Made by a program: the position numbers and the translations under genes. Below the pieces are notes generated by a model, which was given only the letters and a program-made list of their open reading frames with translations, did not search any database and was not told where the DNA came from. DNA of 63,148 bases, the filler included, from Collodictyon triciliatum (Eukaryota): the NCBI GenBank assembly GCA_043381765.1. It is 7 parts of 7 records of this genome, joined end to end, with 100 filler letters (N's around TTAATTAATTAA, not from the genome) between each part and the next. Parts side by side here need not be neighbours in the genome. Positions count along the whole stretch, not along the records: positions 1 to 11,093 come from JBHJMP010002484.1; 6 more parts are not named here. One strand, written 5' to 3'. Each line of letters starts with the position of its first letter. Within the stretch, counting starts at the first letter, position 1. Of the stretch, positions 1,386 through 44,657 are shown piece by piece.

Positions 1386-4300
1386 TCATTGTGAAAAGGG
1401 GTCAGATAACCGTTTTCTTTTCTTCAGATTTTTCATCTTGACCAATTTTCCCTTGATTTCGCCACTTTTTAATAGAGGAATCACAAAAGCGATCGATGAA
1501 AAATAAAGCAGCCATATTGAGTTCATTCCAATAAGCAAAGCTGTAATCCACGATTGCGAGTCAAACAGAGTCGACATGAGCGAAAGGAAGAAGGACAAAA
1601 AAATAATGTAGAGGCTGGACAACTCCATTTGATTTTCGATTTTCGAGTGGTAAGGCTTGTATTCTTTTTGCATCCAAATTGAGCTCTAATAATTTGTGCT
1701 CGATTTAATTTTTCATTTTCAAAAAATTATCTCATATATTGCACCATATAAATGAATATTTAATTCACCTGAATAACAATGATGAGAAGCACGAAGAAAA
1801 CCGCTGGGCTTGTGTATGGAATCACACTGAGCACAAACGAAAAAGCGATGCGGCGTGCGATTATGACAAACTCCCAATACTTGAAGGTCTAAATAATATT
1901 AGTCTCATAAATAATTCAAAATTGATAATGAAAAGTGAAAGAAAATTGGATTCAGTACCTCTTTGTATGGCAAGTAAAGGAATCCATATCGCGCTCCTGG
2001 TTCGTATCCAGGTCTTTCTGCCATGATTTTCACTTTCCACAGTACAAAAGCAGGCAAACCAACCAAGAAAAGAACGAAAACCGGGACAGATATTGCAAGC
2101 AGTTTTTGATATTCATCCGAGGCTGGGCTGCATTGAATCCAGGGCTTGAAATTCAGATACCATTTATTCACACCTTCGTCATAAACGGTGCATCCAAAAA
2201 CACCAAACACCTCTCTTGCGACCGAGTAGTATATAAAAAACAGAAGATTCAATGCGATGAAAACGGCCTGCCAAAAAAATAATAATTTAGAATTACTAAA
2301 GATGAAGCTGAAACAATATGGAGATTTTACAATTAGATGTATTTTTTCATCCTTACTTTGTTCTGCTTGTGTCCATATCCGAAATAGTACGTGGCTGAGC
2401 CAACAATGATAAAGATCGGTATTCTCGAAAAACTGAACATCAGAGAAGCAAATACATCGTCTACTCCAAGGACACAGGAAAGGTTGGGAAATTGGATTGA
2501 GCCAATCGATGATGAGACATCAATAAAGCTGTTTGCATCTTCTGAAAGAACAAGTCCACTAGACACAATCGACAGTGTTTGCATGTGGAACATTATTATC
2601 CTGAGTTTCGCTGCAAGAAATATTCTGATTAATATGAGAAGAATCAAGTGAAATAATTTAGTTACATTTACCTGATTTTGATGTCTCTGTGAAATACAGA
2701 TAGCAAATGAGCATAAAGAATCCAATTGAACCAAGAACCAGAGTTGAATAAATCGTTCCTTTATCGCATTTCACACACGACCTTCCTTGATTTCTGTACC
2801 CATCCTGACATTTTGAGCAGGCATTACCTTCATAACCTTCCTGACATAGGTATAAAATTTCGACCGTCGTATTTGAATTCGAAATTTTCTCTGGAATCGA
2901 CACATCACATGACTCACGACGTGGACACGGTAGTATTGATTTCACAGAGGCAATGCTTGGTGAAGCATGACAGAATTTCAAGGACGTTCCATCAAGGCAA
3001 TCACATCCTCTTGGGCATTGAACGCAATTATTTCCAAAGCCGAAATATCCAGGCAAGCATTTACAAAATTCAAAATCATAGTATTCTGGATTCAAGTCAA
3101 CATCCAACTCAATCAGACCAGATTTCGAAATAATGGAAGGACAAAGGTAGCTTTTCGTTTCATCTTGGAGATTGAAATTTGTCGTAAAATTCATGAAATC
3201 AGGAAGAAAATTGGATGTTCCATGATTCATCGATGTTTTATTCAATCCCAGATACTCAAGCTTTGAAAAACCTATGTATGATTCAGGAATGCTCCCAAGA
3301 ATTGGATTTCCAGTGAGTTCAAGGGAAGTCCATCTCAATAGATTAGTAAGTACATCAAGCTTGGTGATGTTGTTGTTTTTCAAGCTTAATATTTTTATGT
3401 TGAGAACATAGTAAAAAAGTCTCCAATTCAGTTCCCCATAGACTTGGTTATCATCAAGCAAAAGGTTTTCATAGAAATAACTGTTATTGCCTGATGATGG
3501 TGAGATAAAATCAGCAACATTTCCTGAAAATGAATTGTTTCTCAGATCAATGGTGACTAGATTCGGCAGATTCCAGAATAAATCAGGCATGCTTCCGGAA
3601 AATTTGTTGTGAGATAAAACGAGTGATTTCAGTTCTGACAGTCCCTGAAAATAGGTTGGGACTGTACCGTTCATTTTGTTCCATGACAAGTCGATGTATT
3701 TAATTGAAGGCAATATCAAGTAATTGGGAATAGAACCAGTGATTTGGTTTTCACTCACATCCAGTCTTGTCAGATTCTTCATATTGAACATCGGTAACGT
3801 TCCTGACAACTTGTTTCGGAATAGTACTATTTCCTTGATGTTTTTGCAATATTTGAAATCTGGGACTCCTCCCTCCAGCTGATTATCATAAACAGAAAAA
3901 ATCTCCAGTTTTGTCAAATTTGAGAAGTTTGGGATTGTGCCTAAAATTACTCATTAATGTTTGAGGAAATATGAAAATCAAAAGAAAGGAAAAATGAATA
4001 GAAATCACCATTCAATCTGTTTCTATCAAGGACAATTATCTCAACATTTGGAATTCCATTAAATTTTGGTACTGTTCCTGTTTTATAAAGTCAGTTGTTC
4101 ATCAAAACACATGAAAAAATAATAATAAAAAAAAAGTACCATTCAATTTATTGCTGTGAAGATAAACCCATAAAACTTTTGGAATATCACCGAAATTTGG
4201 AACTATTCCTGTAATAAAAACTTAGTTTTTTTTAAAAATATGTAACATAAACATGACAACTACCTGTTAATTGATTGTCGTCAAGGTAAATCCTTAAAAT

Positions 4301-5810
4301 ATTTGGAATTCCATTGAAGTTTGGAACCGTTCCTGAAATAGAACGTTAGTATTATAAATAATAAATGAAATGAAAATATAAATTACCAGTCAATTGATTG
4401 CTGAGAAGATAAATTCTTTCAACTTGTGGAATTTCACTGAAGTTTGTAACCGTTCCTGTACTATAAAGTTAGTTTTGTACTTATAATATATGAAATAATA
4501 ATTAAACTTACCAGTCAATCGGTTGTTGTAAAGATAAATCCATAAAACATTAGGAATTCCACTGAAGTTCGGAACTGTTCCTGTAATATAAATTTAGTTT
4601 TGTACTTATAAACATGAAATAATTATTAAACGTACCAGTCAACTGGTTGTTGTAAAGATAAATTACTAAAATATTTGGAATTTCACTGAAGTTCGGAACT
4701 GTTCCTGTAATATAGAGTTAGTCTTATCAATAATTCATGAAATTTTTATCAAAATTTACCAGTTAACTGATTGCTGTAAATATAAATTATTTTAACATTC
4801 GGAATTCCACTAAAGTTTGGAACTGTTCCTGTAATATAAAGTTAGTTTTTTACTTAAAATATATTTAATAATAGTTAAACGTACCAGTCAATTGATTGCT
4901 GTGAAAATATATCTCTAAAATATTAGGAATTCCTCTGAAGTTTGGAATCGTTCCTGTAATTCGATTTTTATTAAAATTCAGATACTTAATACTTAAGAGA
5001 TTAAAGTCTGGAAGATTTCCGTAAATGAAGTTGTAGCTCATGTCCAAGGAATCCAATAATTGGAACTTCTCAAAAATTACAGAGGCAGCTTCAATATCAC
5101 CATTAAGATTGTTTCTTAACAAGTAGATTTTAACTATGGGACATGTGTTGCTCTATTAAAATTAAGAAAAATATGTTAACAATAAAATCAAGAGATATTA
5201 CTATCATTTCAAGAAATCACCTTATAAACCTCATCCGAACAACTCTGACTGCAGGATATTCCATGCCAATCACAAATAGGAATACTTTCATTCTTCCATC
5301 CAGTATTCAGAAACCAATTATCGCCGCCAAGCAAATCATAAAGTTGGACAAGGAGCTCGAATTGGGTCCCAGTATTTCCATCGGCCACATTTCGACTCTG
5401 TTTATTCTCCAACCCCCGTTCTCTGTTTCCACTTCGTTTTTGCGAATGAATTTCTTTGTAGAAATTGACCTTACTGGATATTAATTTTCTTTCATAATTC
5501 CATTCATCACCATGTCCATTTTCAAGCGAGTATTCTCCATCTTTGCAGCCATTCATCATCCCTGAAAAGTTATCCTCACTCTCTTTTAACAAAGGACATG
5601 TCTCATCGTAGTGGCTAAACAGAATTTGAAATGCATCTTCGACTTTCATGGAAAGTAATTCATCTCTTGAATATTGGCATCTGTTTTTCTTATTTGAGTC
5701 GAAAATGTATTTTATAAATATTCATAAATCAAAACATACCTTTGAAGTCGATGAATTGAGGATGTCGATGAAACAATGAAAACGATGGCAACGAAGGCAG
5801 CCAATATCAT
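1386..5810 (-). CDS. Multi-exon LRR receptor-like membrane protein, copy 1 (signal peptide, LRRNT cap, LRRs, Cys-rich region, multi-pass TM domain)
   Basis: ATG at 5810 gives MILAAFVAIVFIVSS; cap LYDLLGGDNWF..GW..CDWHGISC; LRRs of the NxLxGxIP type; Cys-rich CKCLPGYFG..CQEGYEGNACSKC; hydrophobic exons at 2350-2610, 1965-2265, ~1770-1885 and 1386-1685; GT-AG introns. Confidence 0.88.
4009..4828 (-). repeat. Array of 7 single-LRR 69-nt phase-1 micro-exons
   Basis: Exons at about 4760-4828, 4635-4703, 4512-4580, 4387-4455, 4264-4332, 4140-4208 and 4009-4077. Each is AG|G...TG or AG|GT-bounded and encodes GTVPNFxxIPxxxxIxLxxNxLx. Confidence 0.9.
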
Positions 5811-8800
5811 ATAATTTCTGGGTATATATTAAAGTTTGAGACTAATTTATCAAATATATTTATCACAGATTGAATTACGAAACGCACGTTCCAGGATTTT
5901 TGGGATATTTTATTCTCGATTCGAAGATATTATCGCGTCGGAAATCAGTTCTTTTTTCATCTGGTGAGTGCATTTCTATCCTATTGCCACCAACATCTCA
6001 GTAAGTTGAATATTATCAGTTCTGCTGATATTTTATTCACCAAACATAGGAATATTCAGCAAACTTGATTTTAAGAATATTCAGTACTAAATAAAGAAGT
6101 CTTCAAGTCGATGCTTAAATTTTACATCAATTTATCAAACATTATTGATTTTTCATGTGATATATAGTTGATAGAATGAAAAATACATATAATATATAAA
6201 AATTAATCAATAAAATATACCATTTTGGATAAAATGAGTGAATTTTTTTAGTGAACAAATTTATCTTCATAATTTGCTTTATAATTTTTTCTTTAATAGC
6301 CTTGTTTTTATTTTAAACTTCCCTTGTAACAGATCAGTCACAAATTCATTAACCAATTGTCTTTTCGTACATTCGTATATCTTGATTCAGCATTATGATC
6401 CTCTCTTATGTTAAATTTCATAAAAATAAACACCAAAATATTCTATTGTTCAACATCTCAAGATATCAACCGATAAGCTTAAACGTATGATTGCAAATAC
6501 AAATGAATCTTGATAGATAAGAATATCATGTGTTCGTGCTTCATATGAGTTGATTAACGACTGAAATGATTGAAAGAGAATGTAAATATTTGCATAAAAT
6601 CATTGTGACGGCTAAAAACTTTAGTCATTCCTAAAATTATTTATGTCAGTTCCAAATTGTAAGAAAAATGTTCTTTGATGTTGCATTTGAGTTAACTTTT
6701 ATTCATAATCATATAATTTTTCGTAAAGATAAGAACAATTCATTAGAATCATCTTATTTTTACCATATAATTACACAGAAATTAATCACACATTAAGAGC
6801 TGTTAAAACAGCCATATAATTAGATAAATGCTATTGATTAAATATAAGAACCCCTGTTTGCTTGACTATACCGAATAATTATTATATGAGAAAATAAAAT
6901 GATGTCGAATTAGAACATTATTTTCGATAAAAAAATTCTGGATTTAAAGTCTTAAATTGAATCAATAAAGTTTCTTTTGAGTTATCTGGATTATAGATTG
7001 TTTTACATATGCTTACTCATTAGGCATAATCATCTATGTATGGAAATGGCGTCTAAGTGATGAATCACATCCTTATATTCGGTAAATTTTCATTAAATGC
7101 TGATTAAAGTACTAATATATGTTTTGTGAGCGTTGGGTATCATTTCTAAGAGATTGAATTATTCGCAATTAGTTTCAATATTGGTTTGCATGTATTTATC
7201 TGTTTCATCATTATTTAATTCTCTATATGGAGGCTCTAAATTGTGGATTCAAACGAACCAACTCTCTTAAAATTTCAATTTTATGTCATTATCCATATTA
7301 ATATTATTCATTAAATCAAAACCAAAGCACTAATTAGTTATATCGATAAAAATTTGAATTTAATTTTCTTTTGACCATTAATCATTCTATGTCATATAAA
7401 TTCTATTTTTTTGATTGAGGAATTTTAAACCATGTGATTTTTAAGTTAGTTTGTTAACCGAGATAAAATCAGTGCTTATAAAAAGCTAAAACTCATAATG
7501 ATACAAAAAAAAGGGTGGATTGATTTTCTTCAATTAATAAGCACAATCATTTCAAGAGATATTATAGAACTGAAAATTTAGTCAATGAAGAATTTTAAAT
7601 GTCTATCAATACAGATAAATTGAACCCTCTTATTTGAATATTTGTTAAAAAAATGAAGAAAAGTATAGATTCAAGAATAAACTTGTATATACATTAATAT
7701 TTTTACCCAGCTATATTTTAACCAAATCAAAATAACCTGAACAATATCAATATATAATAATATGATAGAATCGTCACATATGAAAAAATTATAGAATAAT
7801 AATGTATGTATCTAACAAAATTAATAAATTATTCTATAAATAACCGAAATTTACGAATAATATTACGGATGCATAAAAAAGGATTCAACGAATATATTTG
7901 AACGATAGTAATATTGAATATAAAAAGGACGTGAATAATGCACCATATCCTTGGATAGTCGGGGCAACGCAAAAATGAATATCGGTACGCTTACTCATTA
8001 CCTCTGATTTATTTGGAATTGGAAGGGTAGGGTGGATTTTTTGGATTTGATAAATCGACATCTACTTAACCAAGAGAGAAAATTAAACTAATTTAGATGA
8101 TTTAACAACGATTAACTATTAAATAGGTTTATATATTGAGCGGTTAACCTACAAATCATTTCACTTGGAGAAACGAACAATGTCTAGTTAGTTGAGGGGT
8201 ATGGGTGTGAAGCTGTGGACAAAAGATTGCAGGTCAGTCAAGGGGATAGGTGGTATATCATTCAGCGGCAAACTGGTTTTTAGCGGGTATATGGTATGTG
8301 TTTTTCGATTTGGATATTAGAATGGTTCATATGTTGGTTAGTTGGTTTTTTAAATTCACATTTGATGCAAAGGCGTATCTATTGATTTAACAAAACCTAT
8401 TTTTCCCTTTATTCTATTAAAATTTTATTTAGACAGAATGTAAGATACGGATATCAAGATTCTGCAGATAACTAAGCTTCTCTAGTAGATGCGTAATTTA
8501 AAGAATTTTTCTGTAGATTTAGCATTCACAAGATGATACGTAATAAGATTATTACAAATACCAACGACATAGCGATGCAGATGTTTTAGACAGACATTTC
8601 ATCTCGATTAAAATTAATTAGAAAATATATAGCTGATAGTATTGTATTTACTGTAATTATTACAATACTGATTCCATGTATTTTATGTTAGGATTAAATC
8701 TATCAACTAAATAATGTAATAACTAGCATGGCCAGACTCCGATGATAATTCTTAATTTTATAGATTTTGTTGTATCATTATTAGTAATAGTTTTACAACT

Positions 8801-9399
8801 GAAATATTTTTAATTAAAATATTCGACTTTATATATGTTTTTTCTTTGGTAAATAGGTAATGTATTCAAATAAGATTAAACCTTCTAAACTCAAAAAGGA
8901 TACATGACTCTCGATCACAAAAATTTACAACGAATATTATTTTATTTATTTTTGGTCATGAATGAATGAACAAAGACATACTTACTTCCACACACGACAC
9001 GACCCAACACCCCCACCGTACGTTCTTAGAGCTTTACTTCAGACCATCGGGAAAANNNNNNNNNNNNNNNNNNNNNNNNNNNNNNNNNNNNNNNNNNNNN
9101 NNNNNNNNNNNNNNNNNNNNNNNNNNNNNNNNNNNNNNNNNNNNNNNNNNNNNNNNNNNNNNNNNNNNNNNNNNNNNNNNNNNNNNNNNNNNNNNNNNNN
9201 NNNNNNNNNNNNNNNNNNNNNNNNNNNNNNNNNNNNNNNNNNNNNNNNNNNNNNNNNNNNNNNNNNNNNNNNNNNNNNNNNNNNNNNNNNNNNNNNNNNN
9301 NNNNNNNNNAATTAAGAATGAAGTTTGGTTGATGATCTGCTGAAAATTAGGCTTTACACATGTACTTAAAATGTGCGTATTTGGTTTTTTCTATCATTG

Positions 9400-10560
9400 A
9401 ATATCAAACATTTGACGAATTTTCTGTGATACAAACTTAAATTTTTTCGTGCTTTTCAGTTATGAAAAGAATTAGAAGGGAAAATTAGACAAGAATCATA
9501 CTTTTTTAGTATCAGAATTTTGGTCAATCTGGCCCAAAGATTGCACTATTCTTTGTAATGCCCTCAAAGTTTTAATTATGAGTTTCTTTAATTATTGTAA
9601 AAAATTAGATTAATGGTACTTGAAACCTTGAGATAAATAAATTTCCTTTCGATACTATGAATTGGCTTGGTCAACTTACTGTATGACTTGTTTATCACCA
9701 AAAAATGAAAGCTCCAGAGTTTCTTGTACGATGAAATGGAATGACAGATTACCCCTTTCTGAAAGTTCGTGAAGTGCTATTATAAATGGGTTTTTTTTGA
9801 GTTCATCCTGAGAAATAATCAAAATATTTAAATTGTCGAAAATTTTGTCCTGGTCTTTCTTATGCAAGCACGACCTATACTACCAGCCAAACCACAGGAT
9901 GCAATCCTGATTACCGATTACTTCTATGCCACCCGGCAACCAAGTAGCGTCCATGCAAACGATTGCTAGCAAACCAAAGCCAACATCTCCACCGTCCTTC
10001 AAAAAATGGAATGGGAGAATTAAAAAAATAGTCGAAAATTTTGTCTTAATCATATATATATTTCGTTTCAATGAAACCCCCTCTAATATCGTTGAAATTA
10101 ACTCATGATGGGTTTTTCCAACTTGGTTATTTTTAATTCATACATCATTCAATATCATATATGCCTTATGAAAGGTAAACGTAAAAATTAACTAGGATAG
10201 CAAAGTATCAGAATCTAGCGTTTATTTAGTAATAAAAATACATGTAGAGATTTTCCCAAATATGTGTCATACCTGAATCTGGTTGATTAAAGTATGATTT
10301 TGAGTTTCAAGGAGTCAAGTTGAATGGATGAATATCTTCAGACTATAAGAATGGATAATTCATTATTTATGTTTCCAAAATTTTGGGTAATATTGTAGTT
10401 GCTAATTAAAAAATAAAGGTACATTTCTTCGGAGTCTGCAAAAATAATAAACAATATTCTTGCCGGTTCCGCTAATGCCTATGCTGAAGAAGTTATGCTG
10501 GTTTGCCGGCTGTTATACTTTATCTGTTACATACTAGACATATATAAATCAAGGATATTG
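9400..10560 (-). pseudogene. Degenerate coding-like region, partly similar to ~35100-35600 (+)
   Basis: Short broken ORFs. Motifs shared with the 35.1-35.6 kb region: AACTTCTTCA..CTCCGAAGAAAT and ATGATGTATGAATTAAAA. Confidence 0.3.
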
Positions 10561-11093: not shown

Positions 11094-11193
11094 NNNNNNN
11101 NNNNNNNNNNNNNNNNNNNNNNNNNNNNNNNNNNNNNTTAATTAATTAANNNNNNNNNNNNNNNNNNNNNNNNNNNNNNNNNNNNNNNNNNNN
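11094..11193. other. Artificial assembly linker (N44-TTAATTAATTAA-N44)
   Basis: The same 100-nt spacer with six-frame stops recurs at 22286, 33475, 44658, 55840 and 61463. Confidence 0.97.
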
Positions 11194-18783: not shown

Positions 18784-19380
18784 CGGTTCTTTCTGGTTGT
18801 GGGTCTGGGCGATAGAATTGCAAGGCTATGTAAAAAAAAAGTCAGAATGGCTCTCGAACCGCATTGCGTGTTTTGGCAGATGCTTGTGTGGGTTGGGACA
18901 GCTTGTCTCGTGTTTTTTATCCCACCTGGAGGGACTTGATGTCCCCGAACCCAGAGAGGATGATATATCTATTCCCATAAAAGGTAATAGATGAGAAGCA
19001 AAGGTTGAACCACAAACGCGGGCATTCCAGAAAAGTGAAATGTTAATATTTACCTATTCAATATTATAATTGATGATTTAGTATATAAGTAGCCTTTAAA
19101 TGGATATAATACAGCAATTATAACCGTGATATTATATATTCCACTTATATATTGCAATTCAGTTAAATTAGGTATGATTCAGATTTTCCCTTTTACGGTT
19201 GCGTTTTTTCAATAGCTTTCCCAACTTCGATCACCATAAAAAAACAGATGAGAAAAAAAGGGAGTCGGGCTGACTCGTGCTGGATAAGTAGAAGCAAAGC
19301 GCACGAGAATGGTCGAGCATCTCTTATTGTGCACACATACAAACAAAGAACTCATTCTGTCACCGGCTTACAACTAGCAG

Positions 19381-21413
19381 ATGGACTGCTTTACCAACCC
19401 TCTACACTCTGTCTTTGGCACTCTCCGTGCAGTCCGTAGCTATGTGATCTCTGGTGTTTTTCTTGGGGCCGTGTTGTGTTGCGCTTTGCTTTTTGAGGCC
19501 TACGACCGACTCACCCGCCCGTCACGCCCGACCACCCCAGAAAACAAGGAAAGATCCTCCCGGAGTTCTTGTCACAAGCAACAAAACCACAGTCAGTCCT
19601 ACCTCAGAGTTCAGAAGGGAGGTCATCATCACCGCGTGCCAACCATTATCAACGAGCATGGGTACCAGATGGATATCCACCGCATCCAGACTGAAGATGG
19701 CCATATTCTGGGACTACAGCGGATTCATCCAAGGCAAAGCGTGGCAAGAAAGATTGTGGTGATTTTGCAGCATGGACTACTACAGTCATCTGCTGTGTAT
19801 GTTATGAATGAAGAGAAAAGCCTAGGATTTGTGTTGGCCGATCAAGGGTATGTGTATTTTATTATTTTTTTTTACATTTTATAATAGATTTTTCTTATTC
19901 ATATCAATACCATTAATTTTCCCTCTCTTTTTAATTTTTTTTTGTTGTTTTGTTTTTGTTGTATTGCACGAATCACTCATTTTCATTTGTAAATTCAAGA
20001 ACGGGTTCAATTTATTGGGCCAGGAGTCCCTCCATTTTTCTCTATAACCTATTTTTTTTTCCAAACTGAAAAATAGAATGGATGTTTGGTTATCCAATAC
20101 GCGAACAAATATCCACTGCACCCATTCAAAAATCAAGAAAACCCACCAAAGCTACTGGGACTATACTATCGATGACCTCGGAAAGTACGACTTCCCTGCT
20201 GTTATCCGATTCGTTTTGAAAAAGACTGGCGCAAAGAAGGTGGTTTACATTGGACATAGCCAGGTATAGCATATCAAATAAATAAATAAATAAATATGAA
20301 CTCCAGTCACACAATTAATCAATCAATCAGTGGTATATTTATTTTATACTAGTTATCTTATGTTCTAAAAAAAGGATCTCACATTACAGGGGGTGACAAA
20401 AGCTATTGCTGGATTGAATTTTCATCCTAATCTTAACAAGAAGCTTCAGTTACTGGTTGCTCTGAATCCAGGTGTCTATGTTCGACCCATGTCTAACTTT
20501 GTTGTTGATAAACTTGCAAAAACAGAGACAAATACATTCTTTGGTATAATGGGTAATCTATTAATTAATTGCAGCTATTTGATAGAAATGAAGAGAACTA
20601 TATTTTCCTCTTTCCCTTGTAATTTACCTGCTTTTTTTTTAAAAAAAAAGGTATATATACAAGGTCCTTATAATTTACAACTATTTCAGAGTTTTGATTT
20701 TGTAGGCAACGGAGAGTTTCTCCCTATGATGGAAACTGTTCGAAAATGGGTTCCGGAGGGTATATTCTCAATATTTGCGTACAGGTAAAGCTATAGTATA
20801 TGCATATTTAGATAATGATATATATGAAATTTTGTAATTGTGCAGAAACCTAACATTTCGTCTTATTTATTCATTTACAGTATGAGTAGCTTCATGTTTG
20901 GGTGGAATGATGTGAATTGGAACACGAAACAAAAGCCCATGTTCTTCTCTCATACACCTGCTGGTGCTTCTGTTGCAAATGTGGCTCACTGGTTTGAATT
21001 TTTTAACACCATAAATTCGCTTTATATGCTTGTGTATTGAAAGTGTTTGCAAACAGTGTAAATATCATTGTAGTCATTTTGATAACTCAGTATCTTCAAT
21101 TTTTTTATTTTAACAGCATGTTAGATATCATATATGTTAGTATGATGTTTTTTTTTATTCTGTATTTTTGTGAAATTGGCCTTCATATGCATAATCCAGA
21201 GAAACTATTATGCGTAGTATCTTCAATAGAATAACATTTATATTGATAGGTTCCAAATATACCAATCAAATAAATTTCAAATGTTTGATTACGGGGAGAA
21301 TGAAAATTTGAAGCGTTATGGACGGGATAGCCCTCCCGAATACGATCTTGGAAAAGTCCAGGTTGAGTTAAGAAACGATTATAGACTTTTCTTTCTTTCA
21401 TTCATTCATTCAT

Positions 21414-28729: not shown

Positions 28730-29400
28730 TCACATATCTCTTCGCTTGCGGTCTGAGTAGTGAAGAATGCGAGCGTGTTTCAGCAGGCTGTTCAGGAAGC
28801 TGTATTGCACGAGGTTTTCCAGCCTCGATACATTGATTTCTCGTTCGGGCGAATCATTAGAGCGAGAGAATGCACGCACACTCCATAAGGACCACAGCAT
28901 ATGTCCCCTTGTGACTGTCCAGAGTATTCTAGAGTCGTGAGTCATTTGGTATTGTGCGCCAAACAGGATGTCAGACGCGCTGAGACGGTTGAGAGCATAA
29001 TCAAGCTCAGAGAGCATCTTGTGGGTAGACTCTGTCACTTTTTGGGCAAGGGAGCACTTCACAAATGTGTGTTCGATAGAGTCATCTCCACTATGTCACA
29101 TGGTGCATTCTGGAGAGTTCGTTGCTGCATGGACTACACGCACACCTATCCACAGCTCTCTGTTGGAGATATTGAGCAGTAGGGCGCGGTGTTTCGGGAG
29201 TAACTGAGGTATACGGGCTTGCTTCCAGCTTTTGACTATCGGCGGGTCTATAATGCCTATAGTTTCGGCCCAACGACTCATCTTCTCCGGTTTGTAGGGA
29301 TTCGGACTGATGATTTTATATCGAAACAGCTTGGAATAGGCCATGGCCATCGAGAAATGCGGAGAGTCGGGTGTAATGGACCGCCTTTGGTTCTTCAGAC
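28730..29400 (-). mobile_element. Second degenerate copy of the LINE ORF2 C-terminal fragment
   Basis: Translation nearly identical to the 352-960 region (MAMAYSKLFRYKIISPNPYKPEKMSR; CSLAQKVTESTHKMLSELDY). Confidence 0.78.
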
Positions 29401-33650: not shown

Positions 33651-36600
33651 GCCACCGATCAGTACAAGGCCAAGCAAACTGAATGACCCAACATGAAAAC
33701 ATAGCTTCATTTTCTTCAAAAAGCGAAAGTTTAAACCTACGCAAGTTTTTTGTATTTTCCAAAAGCCAAAAGAGCTGATCGAGGGTGGGATAGTCTATCA
33801 AATGCTAGGAAATAATACTCATTATAAAAGAAACAAAAACGGACAAAAGATTAGTCTATAGTAAAACTAAAAATTATTGACTCTGTTCTTGCCTTGTTTA
33901 ATACCTGGGTTCTGTTGTTGCTTACCATCCCACAACTCAAAACTCTCATGAAACTCATTTATATAACCAAAAATCAAGAATTCAAGTATTCTAATTTTAT
34001 GTGCCAATTTGTTAGGGCTCTCATTAATACAGCAATTCGCAAGCCAAGGGGAACCGGGACTATTCGAGTCAGGGAGCATCCTGTTGCAGAGAATTTTTGC
34101 CCACTCACCCAGAATACCTAAACTTCCCAATTTTATATATATATATTCTTTATTTTATCACAATAGCTATAGCTTTAGTTTTATAATATCATTCATAGTA
34201 TACAGTGGACTCCAATCACATCTCGTGCAGCTTGTGACACATTTCATGGACATAATGGAGACTGGGTCTTTGGTCGCCCTGCTGCCCACACCACGCTCAC
34301 TTTTACGGACTCTTCCAAAGACGCAGCCTTGAAGTACATCTCATTTAGTCAGATATTTGCTTTCATGCCGGTTATTTTGATCTATCTGCTTTTCTTTTCT
34401 CAACTCAGCCTATTTTGTGGGATTCGTATATTAGTGAAAACCCCCCTTTTCTCATATGTAATAATTACATCCACTCTTCCATCTAAATTTTTATTTTTCC
34501 ATGAAGCGAAAATGTAGTAAATACAATATGCCTGGAAGTTTACTATCAATATTACAAATTAAGCTTCTCGTCGTTTCTTGTGCCTGAGAGACTGCTGATG
34601 AGTTAAGGAAAGTGAACAATTATCCTTCAATCTCCCTTTACTATAATTGTTAAGTTATATCAATCACGGTCCATATCAAAATAAATGTCAATATTTACTT
34701 TTATTTGTCATGTTTATATAAATAATGCCTTTATAACCCACACTGCCCATAGGATAGAGAAAATGGTTGGGCTGTGGCCAAAGAGAGGATAAGTTCATTT
34801 TTAATGGCTGCATCCCCTACGACTGAAGCTGTTCATTTGGCACCGATGAGGTATTAATGAAACCTTTTAACCATTATTATCCATCGAAGAAGCAAAAATT
34901 TTATACTTACCATATGACATAATTTTTTTAAAAATAATTGAATTAATCCGCGACATTAATAGATCACTCGAATACTCGCCACTGCCGAAGAGGAGAATGA
35001 AATCTGCATGATTAAAAGCGGGTATATATATTTGCTGTTATTGATATTTGCTATCGCATTCTTATACCGATTCACTTCAATTTCAAAAATCGTTTTCGTT
35101 TTCTAAATCACACATAATATCCGGCAGATCATAAGCAATAGCTGACATACTCGTACAACTTCTTCAACCAAGGCCTTAGTGGAATTGGTAAGGCTCCGAA
35201 GAAATATACTTGACTTACAATTGAATTTGTTACTACATCATAACTCGATTTTTTGAAAACTTAAACAAATAATAATACATTCCTAACAGTCTGAATATAA
35301 CTGTCCTTTCAACGCGGCACCTGTATTCACAAAATCAAGCTTTAATCAGCCGAATTCAAGTATGATACACTTTACATGACTTAATGCGCAAGTCCTTTGA
35401 TTTTATAATTCAAAGTAAGCGATAATGTCTGTTGTTATTTTTTTTATTTTTTTTTGTTATTTTGGTGAATTTTTACATCTACTTCTCACTGGGAGTGGAT
35501 GAGATTGGATGATGTATGAATTAAAAGAAACGATGTTCAAAAAAACAAGGGTGATTAATTTTCGACATTAAAAGATTTAAAGAGAATTATGATAGATTTA
35601 TTTTTAATCCATACAAAATTATGGCTACTGGATTAATATAATGATACAGGGTTGGCTCTAACAATTTCTTTTCATAGTAGTACCTGACGAACTAGTAAGA
35701 AGGGCTCATTTTTCCCTGTCTCACTGACACGGGTCTTTGCGCTCGCATTTTTTGGTCCCATTCAAGCCATTCTGTAAATTTTGGTCGTTTCATTTTTTTT
35801 GAAGAATATCTATATCATTTATATTATTAATCGAATTCTTAGCATCATGAATAAATTTGTATTTAATGAAACTCATAACTAAAATATTAACTGCACATTT
35901 CAATGAATAGTGCTACCTTAAGGCCAGATTTCACCAGCATTCTGATAGTAGAACAATATGGTTCTGATCAAATTTTATTTTACAAGAAACCTGGTACGTA
36001 TTACTCCTGAAAACAAAAAGTAAGATTATAATAGTAAATTTCATCTGACACCAAATTGATCACATGATTGATACTCAACGATAGAAAACAAAATCGCACA
36101 CACTGGATTTAAATTAGTCTAGCAGAAATATAGATAATATCAATCAAACAAACTTCTTTCTGTGCCAATACCCTTTTTTTTCGGTAAAGTGTTGAACCTA
36201 GCTTCTTCATGGACTAACTTAAAAAATCGCACTGTTTTATTCAATATATCATATTTAACATTAATTACTCATCTTCAATCGGAAACTGTTCGAACTAAAG
36301 TCATGAACAAAACTCAGATACAGTTAAAATGGATGGGACAAAGGACAAAATCCGTGGGAAAGGGAACTGTTTCGATCTACTACTTGGAGGAGGGGGTGGG
36401 GTGGTGGATTGGCGGCTCCTAGTTTTTCCGATAGTCTGAAGTAAAGGTCTAAGAACATGCGGTGGGGGTATTGGGTTGGGTTGTGTGTGGAAGTAAGTAT
36501 GTCTTTGTCCAGTCATTCATTACCAAAAATAAAAAAAAATTTATTTATTTGTAAATTTCTCTAATCAAGAGTCATGTATCCTTTTTTGTGGTAAGGAGAG

Positions 36601-39600
36601 TTAATCTTATTTGAAAACATTACCTATTTACCAAAGAAAATAACTTGTATAAATATGAATCATTTTTAATTAAAAATATCTCACTTGTAAAACTATTATG
36701 ATGATAGTATAAAATCCTAAAAATTAAGAATCATCATGGGTCTGACAATGCTAGTTATTTTATTATTCAGTTGATAGATTCAATTAGCATGAAATAAATG
36801 GAATCAATATTGTAATACTTACAATGAATACAATAATATAATCTATATATTCACTAATGAAGTTTGATCAAGATATATTGTCTGTTTAAAGCATCTGCAT
36901 CGCCATGTCGTTTGTATTTGTAATAATCTTATTATGTATCGCCTCATGAATACCAAATCAAAAAAAAAAAGCTTTAAATCACGTATCTACTAGAGAAGCT
37001 TAGTTATCTGCATACTCTTGAAATCCGTATTTTACATTCCCCCTAAACGCACTTTGAATAGAATAAAGGGAAAAATAGGTTTTTATTAATTTAATAAATT
37101 ACTGTTGCATGAAGTGTCAGTTTAAAAAAAAAANNNNNNNNNNNNNNNNNNNNNNNNNNNNNNNNNNNNNNNNNNNNNNNNNNNNNNNNNNNNNNNNNNN
37201 NNNNNNNNNNNNNNNNNNNNNNNNNNNNNNNNNNNNNNNNNNNNNNNNNNNNNNNNNNNNNNNNNNNNNNNNNNNNNNNNNNNNNNNNNNNNNNNNNNNN
37301 NNNNNNNNNNNNNNNNNNNNNNNNNNNNNNNNNNNNNNNNNNNNNNNNNNNNNNNNNNNNNNNNNNNNNNNNNNNNNNNNNNNNNNNNNNNNNNNNNNNN
37401 NNNNNNNNNNNNNNNNNNNNNNNNNNNNNNNNNNNNNNNNNNNNNNNNNNNNNNNNNNNNNNNNNNNNNNNNNNNNNNNNNNNNNNNNNNNNNNNNNNNN
37501 NNNNNNNNNNNNNNNNNNNNNNNNNNNNNNNNNNNNNNNNNNNNNNNNNNNNNNNNNNNNNNNNNNNNNNNNNNNNNNNNNNNNNNNNNNNNNNNNNNNN
37601 NNNNNNNNNNNNNNNNNNNNNNNNNNNNNNNNNNNNNNNNNNNNNNNNNNNNNNNNNNNNNNNNNNNNNNNNNNNNNNNNNNNNNNNNNNAAAAAAAAAT
37701 CCTTTTTATTCATATATTATTTTCGAATATTTTTTTGATTTATAGAATGATTTATTTATTTTATTCATTACATACAATATGGGTTCTAAGGTTTTTTGAT
37801 ATTGATGATTATATCATTTTATTAAATCTTGATATTTCGCTTTATTCCTATTCGGTCAAAATATGGCCGAGTACAAGTAGTAATGCATATACAATTTTAT
37901 TGATAATATATTCTTTTTTATCAAATATTCAAATACGAGGATTCAATTTGTCTGCATTGAAAGAAATGTAAACTAATTGAATAGCTAAACTTTCAGTTCT
38001 ATAACATCTCTTTAAATGATTGTGATTGTAAATTGAATAATATCAATAAGTTTTTTATTTTTGTATCATAAAATGAGTTTTTCTTTTTATAAACACTAAT
38101 TTTATCTTGGGTTCCAAATAAACTTAACAATCACATAGTTTAGAACTCCTCAATGAAATATAGGATTTACATAAACATAAAATGATTAATAGTCAAAAGA
38201 ATGTAATATCATATTTTTATCGATATAACTTATCAGTGCTTTGGTTTTAATTAGTATAGCTGGTTTTGATTTGATGAATAACATCAATATGGAAACTGAC
38301 ATAAGATGGTATTTTTAGGGGAGTTTGTTGATTTGAATCCACAATTGAGAGCCTCCTTATAGAGAATGAAATAATCATGATGAAACAGATAAATATATGC
38401 AAATTTATACTGAAACTGATCACGAATCATTGAACCTATTAGAGATGATACCTGGCTCTCACAAAACATATTATGTATTTCAATCAGTTGTTAATCAAAA
38501 TTTACTGAATATTAGGATGTGACTCATCGCTTGACCGCCATTTCTATACACATATGGTTGTGCTTTAAGAGTAAGCAGAGTTCTAGAACAATTAATAATC
38601 CAGCTAACTGAAGAAAGGTTTCAAATACTAAATTAAAGACTTTTAAATCCGGAACAAATTTTATCGAAAGCCATGTTCAAGGGTGATATCATTTTGTTTT
38701 CTCATATAATAATTATTCGATATTGTCAAGCAAACAGGGTTTCTTTAATAATTGATTCAATATAAATTATCTAATAATATGGCTGTTTTAACCTCTGATT
38801 GTTTGATTAACTATCGTGTAATTATATCGTTAACACTAGGATGATTCAAATAAATGTTTCTTCTTATCTTTACATTTTTCATTATGATAATGAAGAACAA
38901 TTTATACGAATCCAACAATAATGAACATTTTTCTTACAATTTGGAGCTCACATAAATAATTTTAGGAATGACTAAAGTTCTAGCCGTCACAATGATTTTA
39001 TGCAGATAATTAGATTCTCTTTTAATTATTTTAGTCATTAATCAACTCATATGAAGCACAAACTCATGATATTCTTATCTATCAAAATTCATTTATATTT
39101 AAAATTATGCGTTTTAGGTTATCGGTGAATATCTCGAGATGTTGGATAATTGAATCATTTGTGTGGTTTATTTTGAAAATGAAAGATAAGAGAGGATTAT
39201 AAATATTGAATCAAGATATATGAATGTACGAAAAGACAAGTGGTTTACGGATATGAGATTGATATATCAGAAGGAAAGTTTAAAATATAAATAAGACAAT
39301 TAATGTAAAAAATCATCAAATCCAATAATGAAAATAAATTTGTACACTGAAAAATTCATTCATTTTTTCGTACGCAATATTTTTGTGTTGATTAAAAATT
39401 TTTATAAATAATTTATGTTTTTTTCGTTCTATCAACTTTATATCGCATGAAAAATCTATAGTATTTGATTAAATGATACACAATTTAAGCTTCAATGTGA
39501 GAAATCCTTTATTTAATACTGAATATTCTTGAAATCAAGTTTGCTGAATATTCCTATGTTTGGTGAATAAAATATCAGCTGAACTGACTATATATAATTT

Positions 39601-39792
39601 TATACTGAGAAATTGGTTGCAATACGTAGGAATGTACTCACTAAACAAAAAAAGAACTGATTTCCGATGCGATAATGTCTTCGAATCGAGAAGAACATCT
39701 ATCAAAAATTCTGCAACGTGCGTCTCATATTTCAATCTTAAATAAATACATTTGTGGATTAGGCTCAATTTTAAATATATCCCAGAAATTCG

Positions 39793-42700
39793 ATGCTTTT
39801 GGTTGCCTTTGTTTCCATCGTTTTCATTGTTTCATCGGCATCCTCAATTCATCCACGTCAAAGGTACATTTTGATTTATGAATATTTGTAAAATACACTT
39901 TCGACTCAAATAAGGAAAACAGATGCCAGTATTCAAGAGATGAGTTGCTTTCCATGAAAGTCGAAGATGCATTCCAAATTCTGTTGAGCTACTACGATGA
40001 GAACTGCCCTATGTTAAAAGAGAGTGAGGATAACTTTTCAGGGTTGATGAATGGCTGGAAAGATGGAGAATACTCGCTAGAAAATGGACATGGTGATGAA
40101 TGGAATTATGGAAGAAAATTAACATCTAGTAAGGTCGACTACTACAAAGAAATTCATTCGCCAAAACGAAGTAGAAACAGAGAGCGGTGGCTGGAGAACG
40201 ACGAGAATCGAAGTGTGACCGATATAAAAACTGGGACCCAATACGAACTCCTTGTCCAACTCTATGATTTACTTGGCGGCGATAATTGGTTTCAGAACAC
40301 TGGATGGAAGAGTGAAAGTATTCCGATTTGTGATTGGTATGGGATTTCGTGTCATCAGAGCTGTTCGGATGAAGACTATAAGGTATTTTTGAAATGATAA
40401 TAATCTCTTTTGATTTCATTTTTAATAATTTTCTTTATTTTTGTAGAGCGATACATGCCCCATACTTGGTGTCTACTTGCCAGAAAACAATCTTAATGGT
40501 GACATTGAAGCTGCTTCTGTAATTTTTGAGAAGCTCCAATTGTTGGATTTCTTGGATATGAGCTACAACTTCATTTACGGAAATCTTCCAGACTTAAATC
40601 TTTTAGTCATTACATATTTGAATCTCTTTGTGAATCGAATTACCGGAACGATTCCAGACTTCCAAGGAATGCCGAATATTGAACATTTTGAGATTGATGG
40701 GAATGAACTGGAAGGAACAATACCAGATTTTTCTGGAATTCAATTAATCACAACGTTGATATTTGGTGCTAGTGAAAAAATTACAGGTATGGAGTGATCT
40801 TTTAATATTTTTTATTTAGGATTGTAAAATAGTTTTCTTTCCAGGAACTCTGCCTGATTTCTCGGCGTTGCCAAATGTTAGGATTCTTGGATTTTATCAC
40901 TGCAATATTCATGGTTTGTTTTTTATTTGAGTTAATTTTGATGGTGTAGAACCCTTTCTTATTTTTTTAATACAGGAACAATTCCGAATTTTCGCGAAAT
41001 TCCAAAAATAGAAACTATTGGTCTTTACAACAATCGAATGACTGGTAAGCTTTAACTATGTCTTAATATATTAAGTTTTTGAATTACTAATTTTTAATAC
41101 AGGAACTGTTCCAAATTTCAGCGAAATTCCAAATCTTAAAAATATAATTTTACACAGCAATTGGTTGACAGGTAATCTTTATGATTATTTTATAATTTGT
41201 ACATGAATTACTAACTTTATAACACAGGGATCGTTCCAAACTTTTGTGGCATTCCAAACGTTGAAGATCTATATCTTTATGATAATCGACTAACGGGTGA
41301 TTTCTATTGTCTCATGTATTATTGATGAAAAACTAACTTTATATCACAGGAACGGTTCCAAACTTCAGTGGAATTCCAAATGTTATAGATATTTCTATTT
41401 CCGACAATCAATTCAATGGTAAATATTGTAAACTTTTCATATATGTTCGGTGAAAACTAATATAATAATACAGGAACGGTTCCCAACTTTTGCGGCATTA
41501 TAAAAGTTAAAAAAATTACTATTTTCGACAATCGACTGACTGGTGAGAATCTGATAATTTTATGTATTATTGATGAAAAACTAACTTTATATCACAGGAA
41601 CGGTTCCAAACTTCAGTGGAATTCCAAATGTTGAAATAATTGATATTTCTGACAATCAATTAAATGGTAAATATTTATGATTAAATCATGTTATGTCGCG
41701 GGAAATAATAATTTTATATCATAGGGACGATTCCAAACTTCAGTGAAATTCCGAATCTTATATGGATTGGTCTCTCTGGAAATTTTTTGAATGGTTAATA
41801 TTCATGATTAAATCATGTTATGTCACGGGAAATAATAATTTTATATCATAGGGACGATTCCAAACTTCAGTGAAATTCCTAATCTTTTATGGATTAGTCT
41901 CTCTGGAAATGATTTGAGTGGTAAATTTTATCACTTTTTCATGTATTGTTGATAAGAAACTAACCTTTTATTACAGGCACGATTCCTAACTTTAGCACTA
42001 TTCCAAATATTAAATGGATTTATCTTTTCAACAATCAATTAACAGGTAATTTTTATTATTATTTCACTTAATATTGATGAAAGACTAATTTAATACTACA
42101 GGAACGATTCCAAACTTCTGTAAAACTCCAGAAATTTTAGAGATTTCTCTCCCTGAGAATGATTTGAGTGGTATATTTAAAGATTACTTCATATATTCAA
42201 TTTGAATAGAGTAAAGGTAAATATTCTTTCATACATCATTCACCAAAAATTAAATTTATATTAAAGGAACCATTCCAAACTTTAGTGGAGTTTTAAAGGT
42301 TGAAATAATTACTATATTTGGTAATCAATTGACAGGTAATTTTATTTTTATTTCACGTAATATTGATAAGAACTAACACAGTATAATAGGGACGATTCCA
42401 AACTTCAGTGAAACTCCTAATCTTTCATGGATTTCTCTTTCTAGAAATCAATTGAATGGTAAATTTTAACACTTTCAAGTATTTTTCAAGTAAGCTAAAT
42501 TTATATTATAGGAACGGTTCCAAATTTTGATGGAATTTTTATGATTGCAATAATTGGTCTTTACGGTAATCAATTGACAGGTATGCAATATGATGTTTCC
42601 TTGTAATTATATTATAATCTAACTCAACATTATAGGAACGGTTCCGAATTTTAATAGAATTCCAAATCTTGAAAAAATATACCTCGACAGAAACAGATTG

Positions 42701-44657
42701 AATGGTGATATCTACTTATTTTCCCTTTCTATTTCTTAGATTTTCATATTTTCTCAAACATTAATGAGTAATTTTAGGCGCAATTCCAAACTTATCAAAT
42801 TTGGGGAAACTGGAGATTTTCTCTGTTTATGAGAATCAGTTGGAGGGAGAGGTTCCAGATTTCAAAGATTGCATAAAAATCAAGGAAATAATACTGTTCC
42901 GAAATAAGTTGACAGGCACATTGCCTATGTTCAATCTGAATAATCTGATAAGACTGGATGTGAGCGAAAACCAAGTCAGTGGCTCTATACCTGATAACTG
43001 GATATTGCCTTCAATTAAATACATCGACTTGTCTTGGAATAAAATGAACGGCACAGTCCCAACCTATTTTCAGGGACTGTCAGAGCTGAAATCACTTGTT
43101 TTGTCTCACAATAAATTCTCTGGAAGCATGCCTGATTTATTCTGGAGTCTGTCGAATCTAGTGACGATTGATTTGAGAAATAACTCATTTTCAGGAGACG
43201 TTGGTGCTTTTATTGTTCCAGCTTCAGGAAGTAATGAAAATATTGATTATTTCTATGAAACTCTTTTGCTTGATGACAACCAACTCTATGGCGAATTAAA
43301 TTGGATGATTTTTAGTTACATTTTCAGCATAAAAACCCTGAGCTTGAAAAACAACAACATCACTAAACTTGATGACCTTACAAATATTTTGAGATGGAAT
43401 TCCTTTGACCTCACTGGAAATCCGATTGTTGGGAGCATTCCTGAATCATACATCGGATTTTCAAAGCTTGAGTATCTGGGATTGAATGAAACATCGATGA
43501 ATCACGGAGCAGCTAATTTTCTTCCTGATTTTATGAATTTCACGACATCTTTCAATCTCCAAGATGAAACAAAACGCTACCTTTGTCCTTCCATTATTTC
43601 GAATTCTGGTCTGATAGAGTTAGAGGTTGACTTGAATCCAGAATACTATGACTTCGAATTTTGTAAATGCTTGCCTGGATATTTCGGCTTTGGAAATAAT
43701 TGCGTTCAATGTCCAAGAGGATGTGATTGCCTTGATGGAACGTCCTTGAAATTCTGTCATGCTTCACCAAGCATCACCTCTGTGAAATCAATATTTCCAT
43801 GTCCACGTCGCGAGTCATGTGATGTGTCGATTCCAGAGAAAAATTCGAATTCAAGTGTGACGGTGGAAATCATAAACCTGTGTCAAGAGGGTTATGAAAG
43901 CAATGCCTGTTCAAAATGTCAGAATGGATACGGAAATCAAGGGAGGTCGTGTGTGAAATGCGATAAAGGAACGATTTACTCTACTCTGATTCTTGGTTCG
44001 ATTGGATTCTTTATGTTCATTTGCTATCTGTATTTCACAGAGACATCAAAATCAGGTAAATGTTACTAATTATTTCACTGTTATGATTCCTATATTAATC
44101 AGAATATTTCATTCAGCGAAACTCAGGATAATAATGTTCCACATGCAAACACTGTCGATTGTGTCTAGTGGAATAGTTCTCTCAGAAGATGCAAATAGCT
44201 TCGTTGATGTCTCATCATCCATCGGCTCAATCCAAATTCCCAACCTTTCCTGTGTCCTTGGAGTGGACGATGTGTTTGTTTCCCTGATTTTTAGTTTTGC
44301 AAGAATACCAATCTTTATCATCGTTGGCTCAGCCACGTACTATTTCGGATATGGGCACAAGCAGAACAAAGTAAGGATGAAAATACATTCCACTGTTAAT
44401 TGTTCGTAATTTATTCAGTTTCATCTTTAGTAGTACTAAATTAATTTATTTTATTTTTTGGCAGGCTGTTTTCATCACCTTGAATCTTCTATTTTTTATA
44501 TACTACTCAGTTGCAAGAGAGGTGTTTGGTGTTTTTGGATGCACCGTTTATGACGAAGGTGTGAATAAATGGTATCTGAATTTCAAGCCCTGGATTCAAT
44601 GCAGCCCAGCTTCAGATGAATATCAAAAACTGCTCGCAATAACTGTCCCAGTTTTCG
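39793..44657 (+). CDS. Multi-exon LRR receptor-like membrane protein, copy 2 (3'-truncated)
   Basis: ATG at 39793 gives MLLVAFVSIVFIVSS; same exon structure and highly similar large exons as copy 1; ends at the linker inside the TM domain. Confidence 0.88.
40845..42704 (+). repeat. Array of 15 single-LRR 69-nt phase-1 micro-exons
   Basis: Exons start at about 40845, 40976, 41104, 41228, 41350, 41474, 41597, 41725, 41852, 41977, 42102, 42267, 42390, 42512 and 42636. All are open and AG/GT-bounded. Confidence 0.9.

Follow-up and report, generated by a model that had tools for sequence, protein, structure and literature searches.

A tandem array of single-repeat exons differs in number and content between two related leucine-rich repeat genes of Collodictyon triciliatum

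Our results show that two related genes of C. triciliatum, here called A and B, are colinear on both sides of a tandem array of exons that each code for one leucine-rich repeat (LRR), and that the arrays themselves differ in both number and content. With equal-length symmetric exons, seven in one gene and 15 in the other, between colinear flanks, the pair belongs to the kind of system in which an LRR array built of one-repeat exons turns over. We consider it probable that cassettes were gained and lost by unequal crossing-over over evolutionary time, with selection acting on the binding face.

Anatomy of the two genes

The window, meaning the whole stretch of 63,148 nt that was analysed, consists of seven pieces with a 100-nt spacer (N/TTAATTAATTAA/N) between each and the next; since A and B are on separate scaffolds joined by such spacers, they are not neighbours. 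Gene A (5810-1386, minus strand) is a complete gene that has an intact frame of 1177 amino acids, GT-AG borders in 14 of 14 introns, and LRR, Cys-rich and membrane parts only (Table 1). Pfam models LRR_8, LRR_4 and LRR_1 match its large exon above cut-off and DUF7630 below it (E 0.0056). The predicted protein would have a signal peptide, a long LRR arm, a Cys-rich stalk, a membrane domain of roughly nine helices and a short tail. A single LINE-like fragment was seen about 350 nt beyond the stop codon of gene A.

Table 1. Positions of the features of genes A and B in the window
Feature	Position	Strand	Remark
Artificial spacer, first of six, 100 nt	11094..11193		Places A and B on separate scaffolds
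Gene A exon 1, signal-peptide-like hydrophobic start	5740..5810	-	Hydropathy peak at residue 1
Gene A exon 2, N-terminal region and LRR N-cap	5221..5680	-	Pfam LRRNT_2 E 0.0035, below cut-off
Gene A exon 3, three fixed LRRs and fused cassette-type repeat A0	4885..5152	-	
Cassette A1, 69 nt, one LRR	4760..4828	-	
Cassette A2, 69 nt	4636..4704	-	
Cassette A3, 69 nt	4512..4580	-	
Cassette A4, 69 nt	4387..4455	-	
Cassette A5, 69 nt	4264..4332	-	
Cassette A6, 69 nt	4140..4208	-	
Cassette A7	4009..4077	-	Sole A cassette with a B partner (B15)
Gene A large exon, fixed LRRs, Cys-rich stalk and first membrane helix	2672..3940	-	
Gene A membrane-domain exons	2610-2357, 2267-1959, 1888-1769, 1685-1386 (stop)	-	
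AT-rich DNA upstream of A, homologous to upstream of B	5811..9055	-	79-82% identity including gaps, two blocks
DNA upstream of gene B, homologous to upstream of A	36423..39792	+	
Gene B exons 1-3	39793..40786	+	End of exon 3: two LRRs (one of 24 residues) missing in A
Gene B array, 15 cassettes B1-B15	40845..42704	+	
Gene B fixed LRR, Cys-rich and membrane exons	42778..44657	+	Truncated at scaffold end 44657

The seven stand-alone cassettes of gene A are 69-nt, phase-1 exons bounded by AG and GT, each coding for one 23-residue LRR and preceded by an intron of 54-62 nt; an eighth repeat of the same type, A0 (4953-4885), lies within exon 3 without an intron. Across both genes, in which introns measure 53-96 nt, all 22 stand-alone exons have this length and phase and keep frame and splice sites. 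A preliminary description had counted seven cassettes in A against 15 in B, a count borne out by exon coordinates, splice bounds and phase, and every cassette motif that it listed was found in the array of gene A. Over the whole interval there are 8 LRRs in A vs 17 in B. The 24-residue unit of B is common to relatives P0005, P0009 and P0012, and the Cys-bearing unit that follows it to P0008, P0009 and P0012; both are absent in A. In all, A would have lost three LRRs near the N-terminus that are present in B and in distant relatives.

Related transcripts of runs X2 and X12 have joints at introns 1686-1768 and 1889-1958 of gene A, and one cassette-to-cassette junction is also spliced in related transcripts (contigs, runs). 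This support comes from contigs of four runs, with low depth over the array and 33 joints beyond those listed; shares were small in 8 of the 12 runs. Because no listed contig piece spans the array, its unit order stands without an independent check. A loose end in X3 at 4046 did not fit the 69-nt register and was left out of the analysis.

The flanking exons of A and B are colinear at 83-94% nucleotide identity, and all five orthologous introns that were compared beyond the array have kept their places. The preliminary description called these exons highly similar, which is correct with the qualification that a dS of 0.32 (dN 0.07, 815 codons) means an old split. It also called the transmembrane (TM) exon almost identical; this agrees with 182 of 193 nt in the second TM exon, and the claim reaches no further into that exon, since gene B ends at 44657, inside its membrane domain, and only these 193 nt can be compared. 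We considered and rejected that the TM exons had recently undergone gene conversion, as their dS of 0.23 and dN/dS of 0.11 point to purifying selection. The best reading is that A and B would be two members of a multigene surface-protein family, which split together with 7 kb or more of surrounding sequence at dS of about 0.3.

Turnover of the array

The internal cassettes have no one-to-one partners in the other gene. Only the last pair matches, A7 and B15 being reciprocal best hits (81% nucleotide identity) with 62 of 68 ungapped positions identical in their downstream introns, just as the preliminary description had stated. The best B match of each of the seven A units is B5 or B7 and nothing else, at an identity of 0.70-0.78. 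In 21 windows of orthologous flank the median is 0.88, a difference that upholds the earlier proposal that the array turns over faster than the rest of the gene. When the exposed codons are masked, the best A-in-B identity becomes 0.74-0.81 and overlaps the upstream non-coding median of 0.79; therefore, one old ortholog of an A unit may exist among B5 and B7. Units also group by gene rather than by position, the check that had been proposed, with three changes of gene label vs about six in shuffles (4-6 of 500 shuffles were as low). The unit tree likewise groups by gene save for A7 with B15, although only 2 of its 17 inner branches are well supported. The introns before A1, A3 and A4 are 84-89% identical to each other, and those of B8/B9 and B5/B7 95% and 85%, respectively, compared with 79% for the best intron match across genes.

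Unequal crossing-over could account for this pattern. The middle of the LRR arm would be a tandem repeat of a 69-nt exon and a 55-nt intron, in which the 3' end of the intron and the scaffold half of the exon would form a conserved stretch where misaligned repeats could cross over; because each exon corresponds to one entire repeat in phase 1, adding or removing units in register leaves the reading frame intact. All six identical tracts of 22 nt or longer between units end at exon nt 10-35, and the first exposed codon begins at nt 36. Recombination tests gave p values of 0.013-0.030 for B units and 0.05-0.67 for A units, and the test on exons only was negative (p 0.98). As for the order of events, we infer that in lineage A a deletion may have removed N-terminal LRRs and most old cassettes, fusing one cassette into exon 3, and that a B5/B7-like unit would then have been re-amplified to seven copies at about the time when A and B split. 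Lineage B would have retained older units and added B5/B7 and B8/B9. Regrowth of the A array from a B5/B7-like unit is the most likely course, judging from the relationships among units.

The A array might instead have been imported en bloc, by crossover or conversion with a third paralog, which we regard as unlikely but deserving of weight. Silent divergence between A and B is indeed higher beside the array (50/235 in the adjacent LRRs vs 65/443 in the rest of the gene, p 0.03), but the step is modest and has no sharp edge. Silent differences of A0-A6 among themselves (86/296) slightly exceed those same 50/235 of the flanking LRRs, as an import would allow, and this level also fits a radiation near the A/B split. 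Further family members exist, since one TM exon occurs in at least three versions in run X2, and both X2 and X12 splice in a cassette absent from A and B. However, an array whose units are without exception nearest to B5 or B7 is what regrowth of a unit shared with B predicts.

The predicted binding face and competing explanations

The pattern of variable sites can be read directly from the cassettes. Five of 22 positions have the highest entropy (14, 18, 19, 16 and 13), and they make up the predicted binding face; the same positions are conserved in the fixed LRRs. In seven disjoint cassette pairs, which were selected by similarity, exposed residues differ at 19/35 sites vs 30/119 for other sites (p 0.002) and 7/50 for exposed sites of the fixed 3' LRRs (p 1e-4), and exposed pN is 0.36 vs an overall pS of 0.20 (p 0.013). 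One exposed position is Tyr in seven of the eight A units; therefore, the face of A is not uniformly hypervariable. Selection would hold the scaffold and the fixed LRRs while tolerating or favouring change at five residues of the concave face. Paralogs would thus offer different binding surfaces on one membrane anchor.

Neutral tandem turnover under relaxed constraint, with exposed residues simply drifting, is rather improbable as an alternative. Exposed dN/dS is 1.0 among A units, a value that relaxed constraint also yields, and the samples are small. On the other hand, in these small and non-independent sets exposed dN/dS reaches 1.6 among B units and 1.4 across genes, vs 0.18 for exposed sites of the fixed 3' LRRs, and the frame and splice sites of every stand-alone cassette are intact. 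In brown-algal ROCO genes of Ectocarpus and Saccharina, passages of two studies describe positively selected sites at N-6, N-4, N-2 and N-1 (PMC3341825; PMC11378527), the same four positions that are most variable here (14, 16, 18 and 19), which weighs against drift.

We find it hard to credit that A and B represent a single locus in the form of strongly diverged alleles or homeologs, even if separate scaffolds with upstream homology for kilobases resemble uncollapsed haplotypes. Non-coding divergence of about 20% and a dS of 0.3 are far above ordinary allelic levels. Moreover, the 2409-2596 stretch occurs in three versions in X2 alone, and neither of the two that are not A matches B across the six listed sites in 2495-2554.

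Little credence can be given to the idea that the cassettes are a regulated diversity generator, in which exons would be skipped or somatic recombination would be programmed within a clone. Omission of any cassette leaves the frame intact, since all are frame-neutral, and splice variants are described in parts of a study of brown-algal ROCO arrays (PMC11378527). However, a search of both strands of the window found no orphan, inverted or intronic LRR exon that could serve as donor, since all 24 strong nhmmer hits are coding units of the two arrays. Near-identical young copies are absent (the closest cassettes are 88-91% identical, the best exon pair 91%), the splice sites are ordinary and signs of mutual exclusion are lacking. 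The layout of constant and variable regions that the preliminary description had proposed thus holds only as an evolutionary outcome, and neither cassettes this divergent nor a window free of orphan donors carries it beyond that; skipping or rearrangement was not seen either, in contigs of low depth over the array.

An assembly collapse of a longer, B-colinear array, named in the preliminary description as what would refute the seven-cassette count, is so improbable as to be nearly negligible even in a fragmented, gapped assembly with no listed read or contig across the array, because identity between A and B exons nowhere exceeds 84% and exact repeats in the A array reach 31 nt at most, so that collapse cannot create the sequences of A; hidden perfect duplicates in the A array are its sole possible remaining form.

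Known systems, the membrane domain and meaning

The variable lymphocyte receptors (VLRs) of jawless fish likewise have constant ends that enclose variable LRR modules, whose varying residues lie on the concave face. VLR assembly is a somatic process in which non-coding donor cassettes are inserted into an incomplete germline gene, whereas A is a complete gene and its modules are spliced exons. Closer parallels come from brown algae and ciliates. In Tetrahymena, passages of the published account describe highly similar inparalogs with differing exon number, ascribed to unequal crossing-over; there, 90-bp phase-2 exons occur in thousands of genes, with LINE-like REP elements beside the repeat units. 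Unlike those units, the array introns of A and B hold no LINE-like element. In ROCO type I genes of Ectocarpus and Saccharina, sections of one study report exons that begin at the GxxP boundary and hold a single LRR each, and recent Ectocarpus duplicates that are near-identical outside the LRR domain but have 13 vs 17 LRR exons (PMC3341825). The Ectocarpus exons have 72 nt and 24 residues and belong to a GTPase gene, while those of A and B have 69 nt and 23 residues, are separated by 55-nt introns and belong to a predicted surface protein. Non-coding and inverted LRR exons in introns, as well as splice variants, are on record for Ectocarpus; the former have no counterpart in the window, and the latter were not seen in the contigs of four runs. 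The ROC-COR GTPase domain of the Ectocarpus LRR-ROCO proteins is missing from the complete model of A, and a Pfam scan of seven exon pieces of gene A found no GTPase domain.

Fungal Pkd2-type proteins with the PF06011 'TRP' domain have, according to passages of one report, a signal peptide, an N-terminal domain outside the cell and a membrane domain predicted to have nine helices (10.1101/2022.08.11.503631). The outside part of PF06011 'TRP'/fungal Pkd2 proteins is Ig-like, in contrast to the LRR and Cys-rich parts of the A/B family. PF06011 was found in 6 of 40 family members at E <=0.01 (best 2.7e-7); relative P0019 scored 19.1 against a Pfam cut-off of 28.5, and the window's own TM exons gave no PF06011 match in the Pfam scan. 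An Atlas neighbour, 'TRP C-terminal domain', scored 0.94, and the Cys-rich part gave Atlas leads below 0.9 only. The predicted model of P0019 has ten long helices after the stalk, one of them probably cytoplasmic. Taken together, these models suggest a membrane domain of roughly nine helices with a weak likeness to PF06011. As regards a seven-helix GPCR fold, for the whole 576-residue model of a relative Foldseek found no match at E <=0.001 and VIA gave a best Z of 6.7, to unrelated bundles; among solved structures, fold search thus identified no significant relative of the membrane domain, a result that argues against no particular fold. Relatives in EukProt number nine (transcripts), and two scans of metagenome contigs revealed no related locus, none of their 82 and 342 pattern matches being confirmed. 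Literature searches for LRRs in the Diphylleia genome, for DUF7630 and for 69-nt LRR exons found no relevant paper, and passages of a paper on choanoflagellate GPCRs do not include this LRR family.

The contrast between paralog arrays is already known from the portions cited of the Ectocarpus ROCO and Tetrahymena work, and the A/B pair does not amount to a new diversity-generating system. What differs here is the carrier, an extracellular LRR arm with a Cys-rich stalk and the membrane domain described above. With this pair, the known cases of one-repeat-exon turnover in an LRR arm extend to a new carrier protein and to a lineage that is apparently independent, in support of the idea that variable ligands repeatedly give rise to such a layout. 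The pair also exposes the turnover directly, dated against a silent-site clock. It is likely that these proteins would recognise a variety of external ligands, whether prey, virus, parasite or self, and would signal through the membrane domain. It would be a long shot that this predatory free-living protist holds a surface-LRR/Pkd2-like repertoire whose face is rapidly renewed by cassette exchange or skipping to give many receptors per clone. The findings point to the family with LRRs, a Cys-rich stalk and a PF06011-like membrane domain as candidate protist sensors.

The two loci and their surroundings

The preliminary description held that two LRR genes of C. triciliatum differ in a central array and are similar elsewhere, and our analysis shows that this observation is real and was described correctly. 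The first scaffold piece of the window carries gene A and the fourth carries gene B, so that their distance and opposite orientation are meaningless. The seven pieces are sorted by size (11093, 11092, 11089, 11083 and 11082 nt for the first five) and, because the six spacers between them are artificial, gene neighbourhood cannot be inferred across a spacer. Its short introns with GT-AG borders mark the DNA as eukaryotic. Sequencing runs with small shares of the window stretch were mostly freshwater and subsurface metagenomes.

The exon annotation bears out the counts of 7 and 15 cassettes (stand-alone exons of a single LRR) proposed for A and B; the motifs listed for A are present and its last cassette matches the last one of B. 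Over the variable interval, LRRs total 8 in A, including a cassette-type repeat (A0) with which exon 3 ends in a fusion, versus 17 in B. Joints in two runs, X2 and X12, both presumed to be RNA, correspond to predicted introns 1686-1768 and 1889-1958. These runs also contain a 69-nt unit absent from A and B, read by hand as VFEVYLSSNQL, which the next cassette follows directly; this indicates splicing of cassette introns in a relative, but is no evidence of exon skipping. In record 9 of X12 (window 1687-1959), a related transcript passes from 1959 to 1687 through 35 letters of other sequence and omits the 120-nt exon 1888-1769, possibly as a splice variant or a paralog in the membrane domain.

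Among the remaining features, the first of two copies of a frameshifted fragment has a zf-RVT domain (E 4e-6), of a kind typical for non-LTR retrotransposon ends, and lies ~350 nt beyond the stop of gene A. The WD40 frame includes near-identical repeats at the scaffold end and, being intronless, is unusual for a genome rich in introns. Of the pieces that resemble a molybdenum-cofactor synthesis gene, the first gave no match in a Pfam scan.

Coordinates of genes and other features in the window
Feature	Position	Strand	Remarks
Gene A	5810-1386	-	15 exons, open 1177-residue protein
Gene A cassettes	4828-4009	-	7 exons, each exactly 69 nt, phase 1, one 23-residue plant-type LRR
Gene B	39793-44657	+	15 cassettes of the same 69-nt kind; broken off by scaffold end inside the membrane domain
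Fragment copies (zf-RVT in the first)	330-1039, 28662-29372		89% identical to each other, frameshifted
WD40-repeat frame	22386-27561	-	intronless, ~1700 codons, 126-nt repeats
Molybdenum-cofactor-synthesis-like pieces	45132-49404	+	CxxxCxxC near 45400, MoaC-like stretch near 49200
Lipase exon (Abhydro_lipase)	19378-19851	+	
MFS_2 transporter exon	56347-56643	+	
Artificial spacers (100 nt)	start 11094, 22286, 33475, 44658, 55840, 61463		join size-sorted scaffolds

Divergence of the pair and turnover of the arrays

Outside the arrays, identity is 83-94% in the six exon pairs that A and B have in common (aligned positions), 76-92% in five orthologous introns and 79-82% in two blocks upstream (gaps counted), with dS 0.32 and dN 0.07 over 815 flanking codons. 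In the membrane part, dS of 0.23 and dN/dS of 0.11 attribute the near identity of the protein to purifying selection and rule out recent copying as its cause. Run X2 holds three versions of one membrane-domain exon, and neither of the two that differ from A matches B over the six listed sites in 2495-2554; therefore, the family has several members that are about 90% identical. A and B are more likely paralogs than alleles. Upstream of both (5811-10437 and 35191-39792) are kilobases of AT-rich DNA, ~80% identical, in which no open frame without gaps reaches 150 codons and which include a purine/pyrimidine-skewed patch near 8980-9055.

Between A and B, no cassette exons are more than 84% and no array introns more than 79% identical; intron pairs within a gene reach up to 84-89% (A) and 85-95% (B). 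All 7 units of A (cassette plus upstream intron) are nearest to B5 or B7, with identities of 0.70-0.78 against a median of 0.88 for flank windows (n=21, p 2e-4), a generous comparison since those windows are mostly coding. When exposed codons were masked, the best identity of A units in B was 0.74-0.81, close to that of the upstream DNA (0.79). Cassettes group by gene and not by position in a tree of 20 units, built without B1 and B12 and without A0 and B00, which lack an upstream intron; it needs 3 label changes versus about 6 in shuffles, although good support is confined to 2 of 17 inner branches. The sole cross-gene pair is A7 and B15 (support 90/87).

That the 7-cassette array is an assembly collapse of a longer colinear one is very unlikely, since the longest exact repeat within it is 31 nt and a collapsed B-like array cannot explain A. 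Gene B has a 24-residue LRR common to three distant relatives near the start of the arm, followed by a Cys-bearing LRR seen in three relatives; A lacks both and is thus the derived form. Silent differences amount to 86/296 among A0-A6 (pairs not independent), slightly more than the 50/235 between A and B in neighbouring fixed LRRs, a level that itself exceeds the 65/443 in the rest of the gene. These levels fit an array regrown around the split, or one imported from a third paralog.

Identical tracts of at least 22 nt between units all (6/6) end at exon nucleotides 10-35, ahead of the exposed codons, and most exceed their exon offset, hence taking in the end of the preceding intron as well. 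Such a conserved segment lends itself to unequal crossing-over, and a layout of whole repeats in phase 1 keeps the frame upon gain or loss of a unit. Mosaicism tests gave a mixed picture, with p 0.013-0.030 among 12 B units (all but B1, B11 and B15), 0.05-0.67 among 7 A units and 0.98 when the 22 exons were tested alone. A cassette profile search on both strands of the window found 24 strong matches, all within the two arrays and none elsewhere, indicating that a local donor pool is absent.

Variable residues and the protein family

The most variable 5 of 22 cassette positions (14, 18, 19, 16 and 13) are x positions of the LxxLxLxxN strand, whose x residues point to the concave side in solved LRRs. 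In seven disjoint close cassette pairs, picked by similarity, 19/35 exposed sites differ versus 30/119 sites elsewhere in the cassettes; 7/50 exposed sites of the fixed 3' LRRs differ between A and B. For exposed sites, dN/dS is 1.0 among A units, 1.6 among B units and 1.4 between the genes; the scaffold gives 0.3. These sequence comparisons suggest diversifying selection on the exposed residues. Position 16 is Tyr in 7/8 A units and takes six different residues in B.

A profile-free search with the last LRR and Cys-rich part returned 265 representatives at E <=0.001, of which 32 reached 1e-30 or lower. Close relatives share an LRR arm, a Cys-rich stalk, a membrane domain and, in most cases, a short tail; those apparently full-length have roughly 16 to 31 LRRs. 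The AlphaFold model of one relative, P0019 (pLDDT 90), has ten long helices past the stalk, and a solved-structure search with it gave no significant match. Weak matches among 40 family members were to DUF7630 (18/40) and PF06011 (6/40), the latter being the family of fission-yeast Pkd2. For this Pkd2, a nine-helix domain is predicted behind an extracellular domain (10.1101/2022.08.11.503631). We infer that the A/B-type protein is most likely a ligand-sensing membrane protein, perhaps a channel. Relatives P0009 and P0031 carry an extra N-terminal NIDO, and P0152 has PF14312 repeats and several LRR N-caps, so the N-terminus of the family is modular too.

Comparison with known LRR-exon genes

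The pair behaves like the ROCO genes of Ectocarpus and the LRR-exon inparalogs of Tetrahymena. Two duplicated Ectocarpus ROCO genes are nearly identical outside their LRR domains, which comprise 13 and 17 exons of one repeat each, and four concave sites are under selection (PMC3341825); another report confirmed these sites and described splice variants (PMC11378527). In Tetrahymena, inparalogs differ in how many 90-bp LRR exons they have, a variation attributed to unequal crossing-over (PMC6564038). Unlike those of Ectocarpus, A and B are not ROCO genes, and they are not VLR-like either. Our literature search found no paper on the A/B family or on 69-nt LRR exons. A and B represent a known kind of array that turns over in evolution, carried by a receptor type as yet unstudied.
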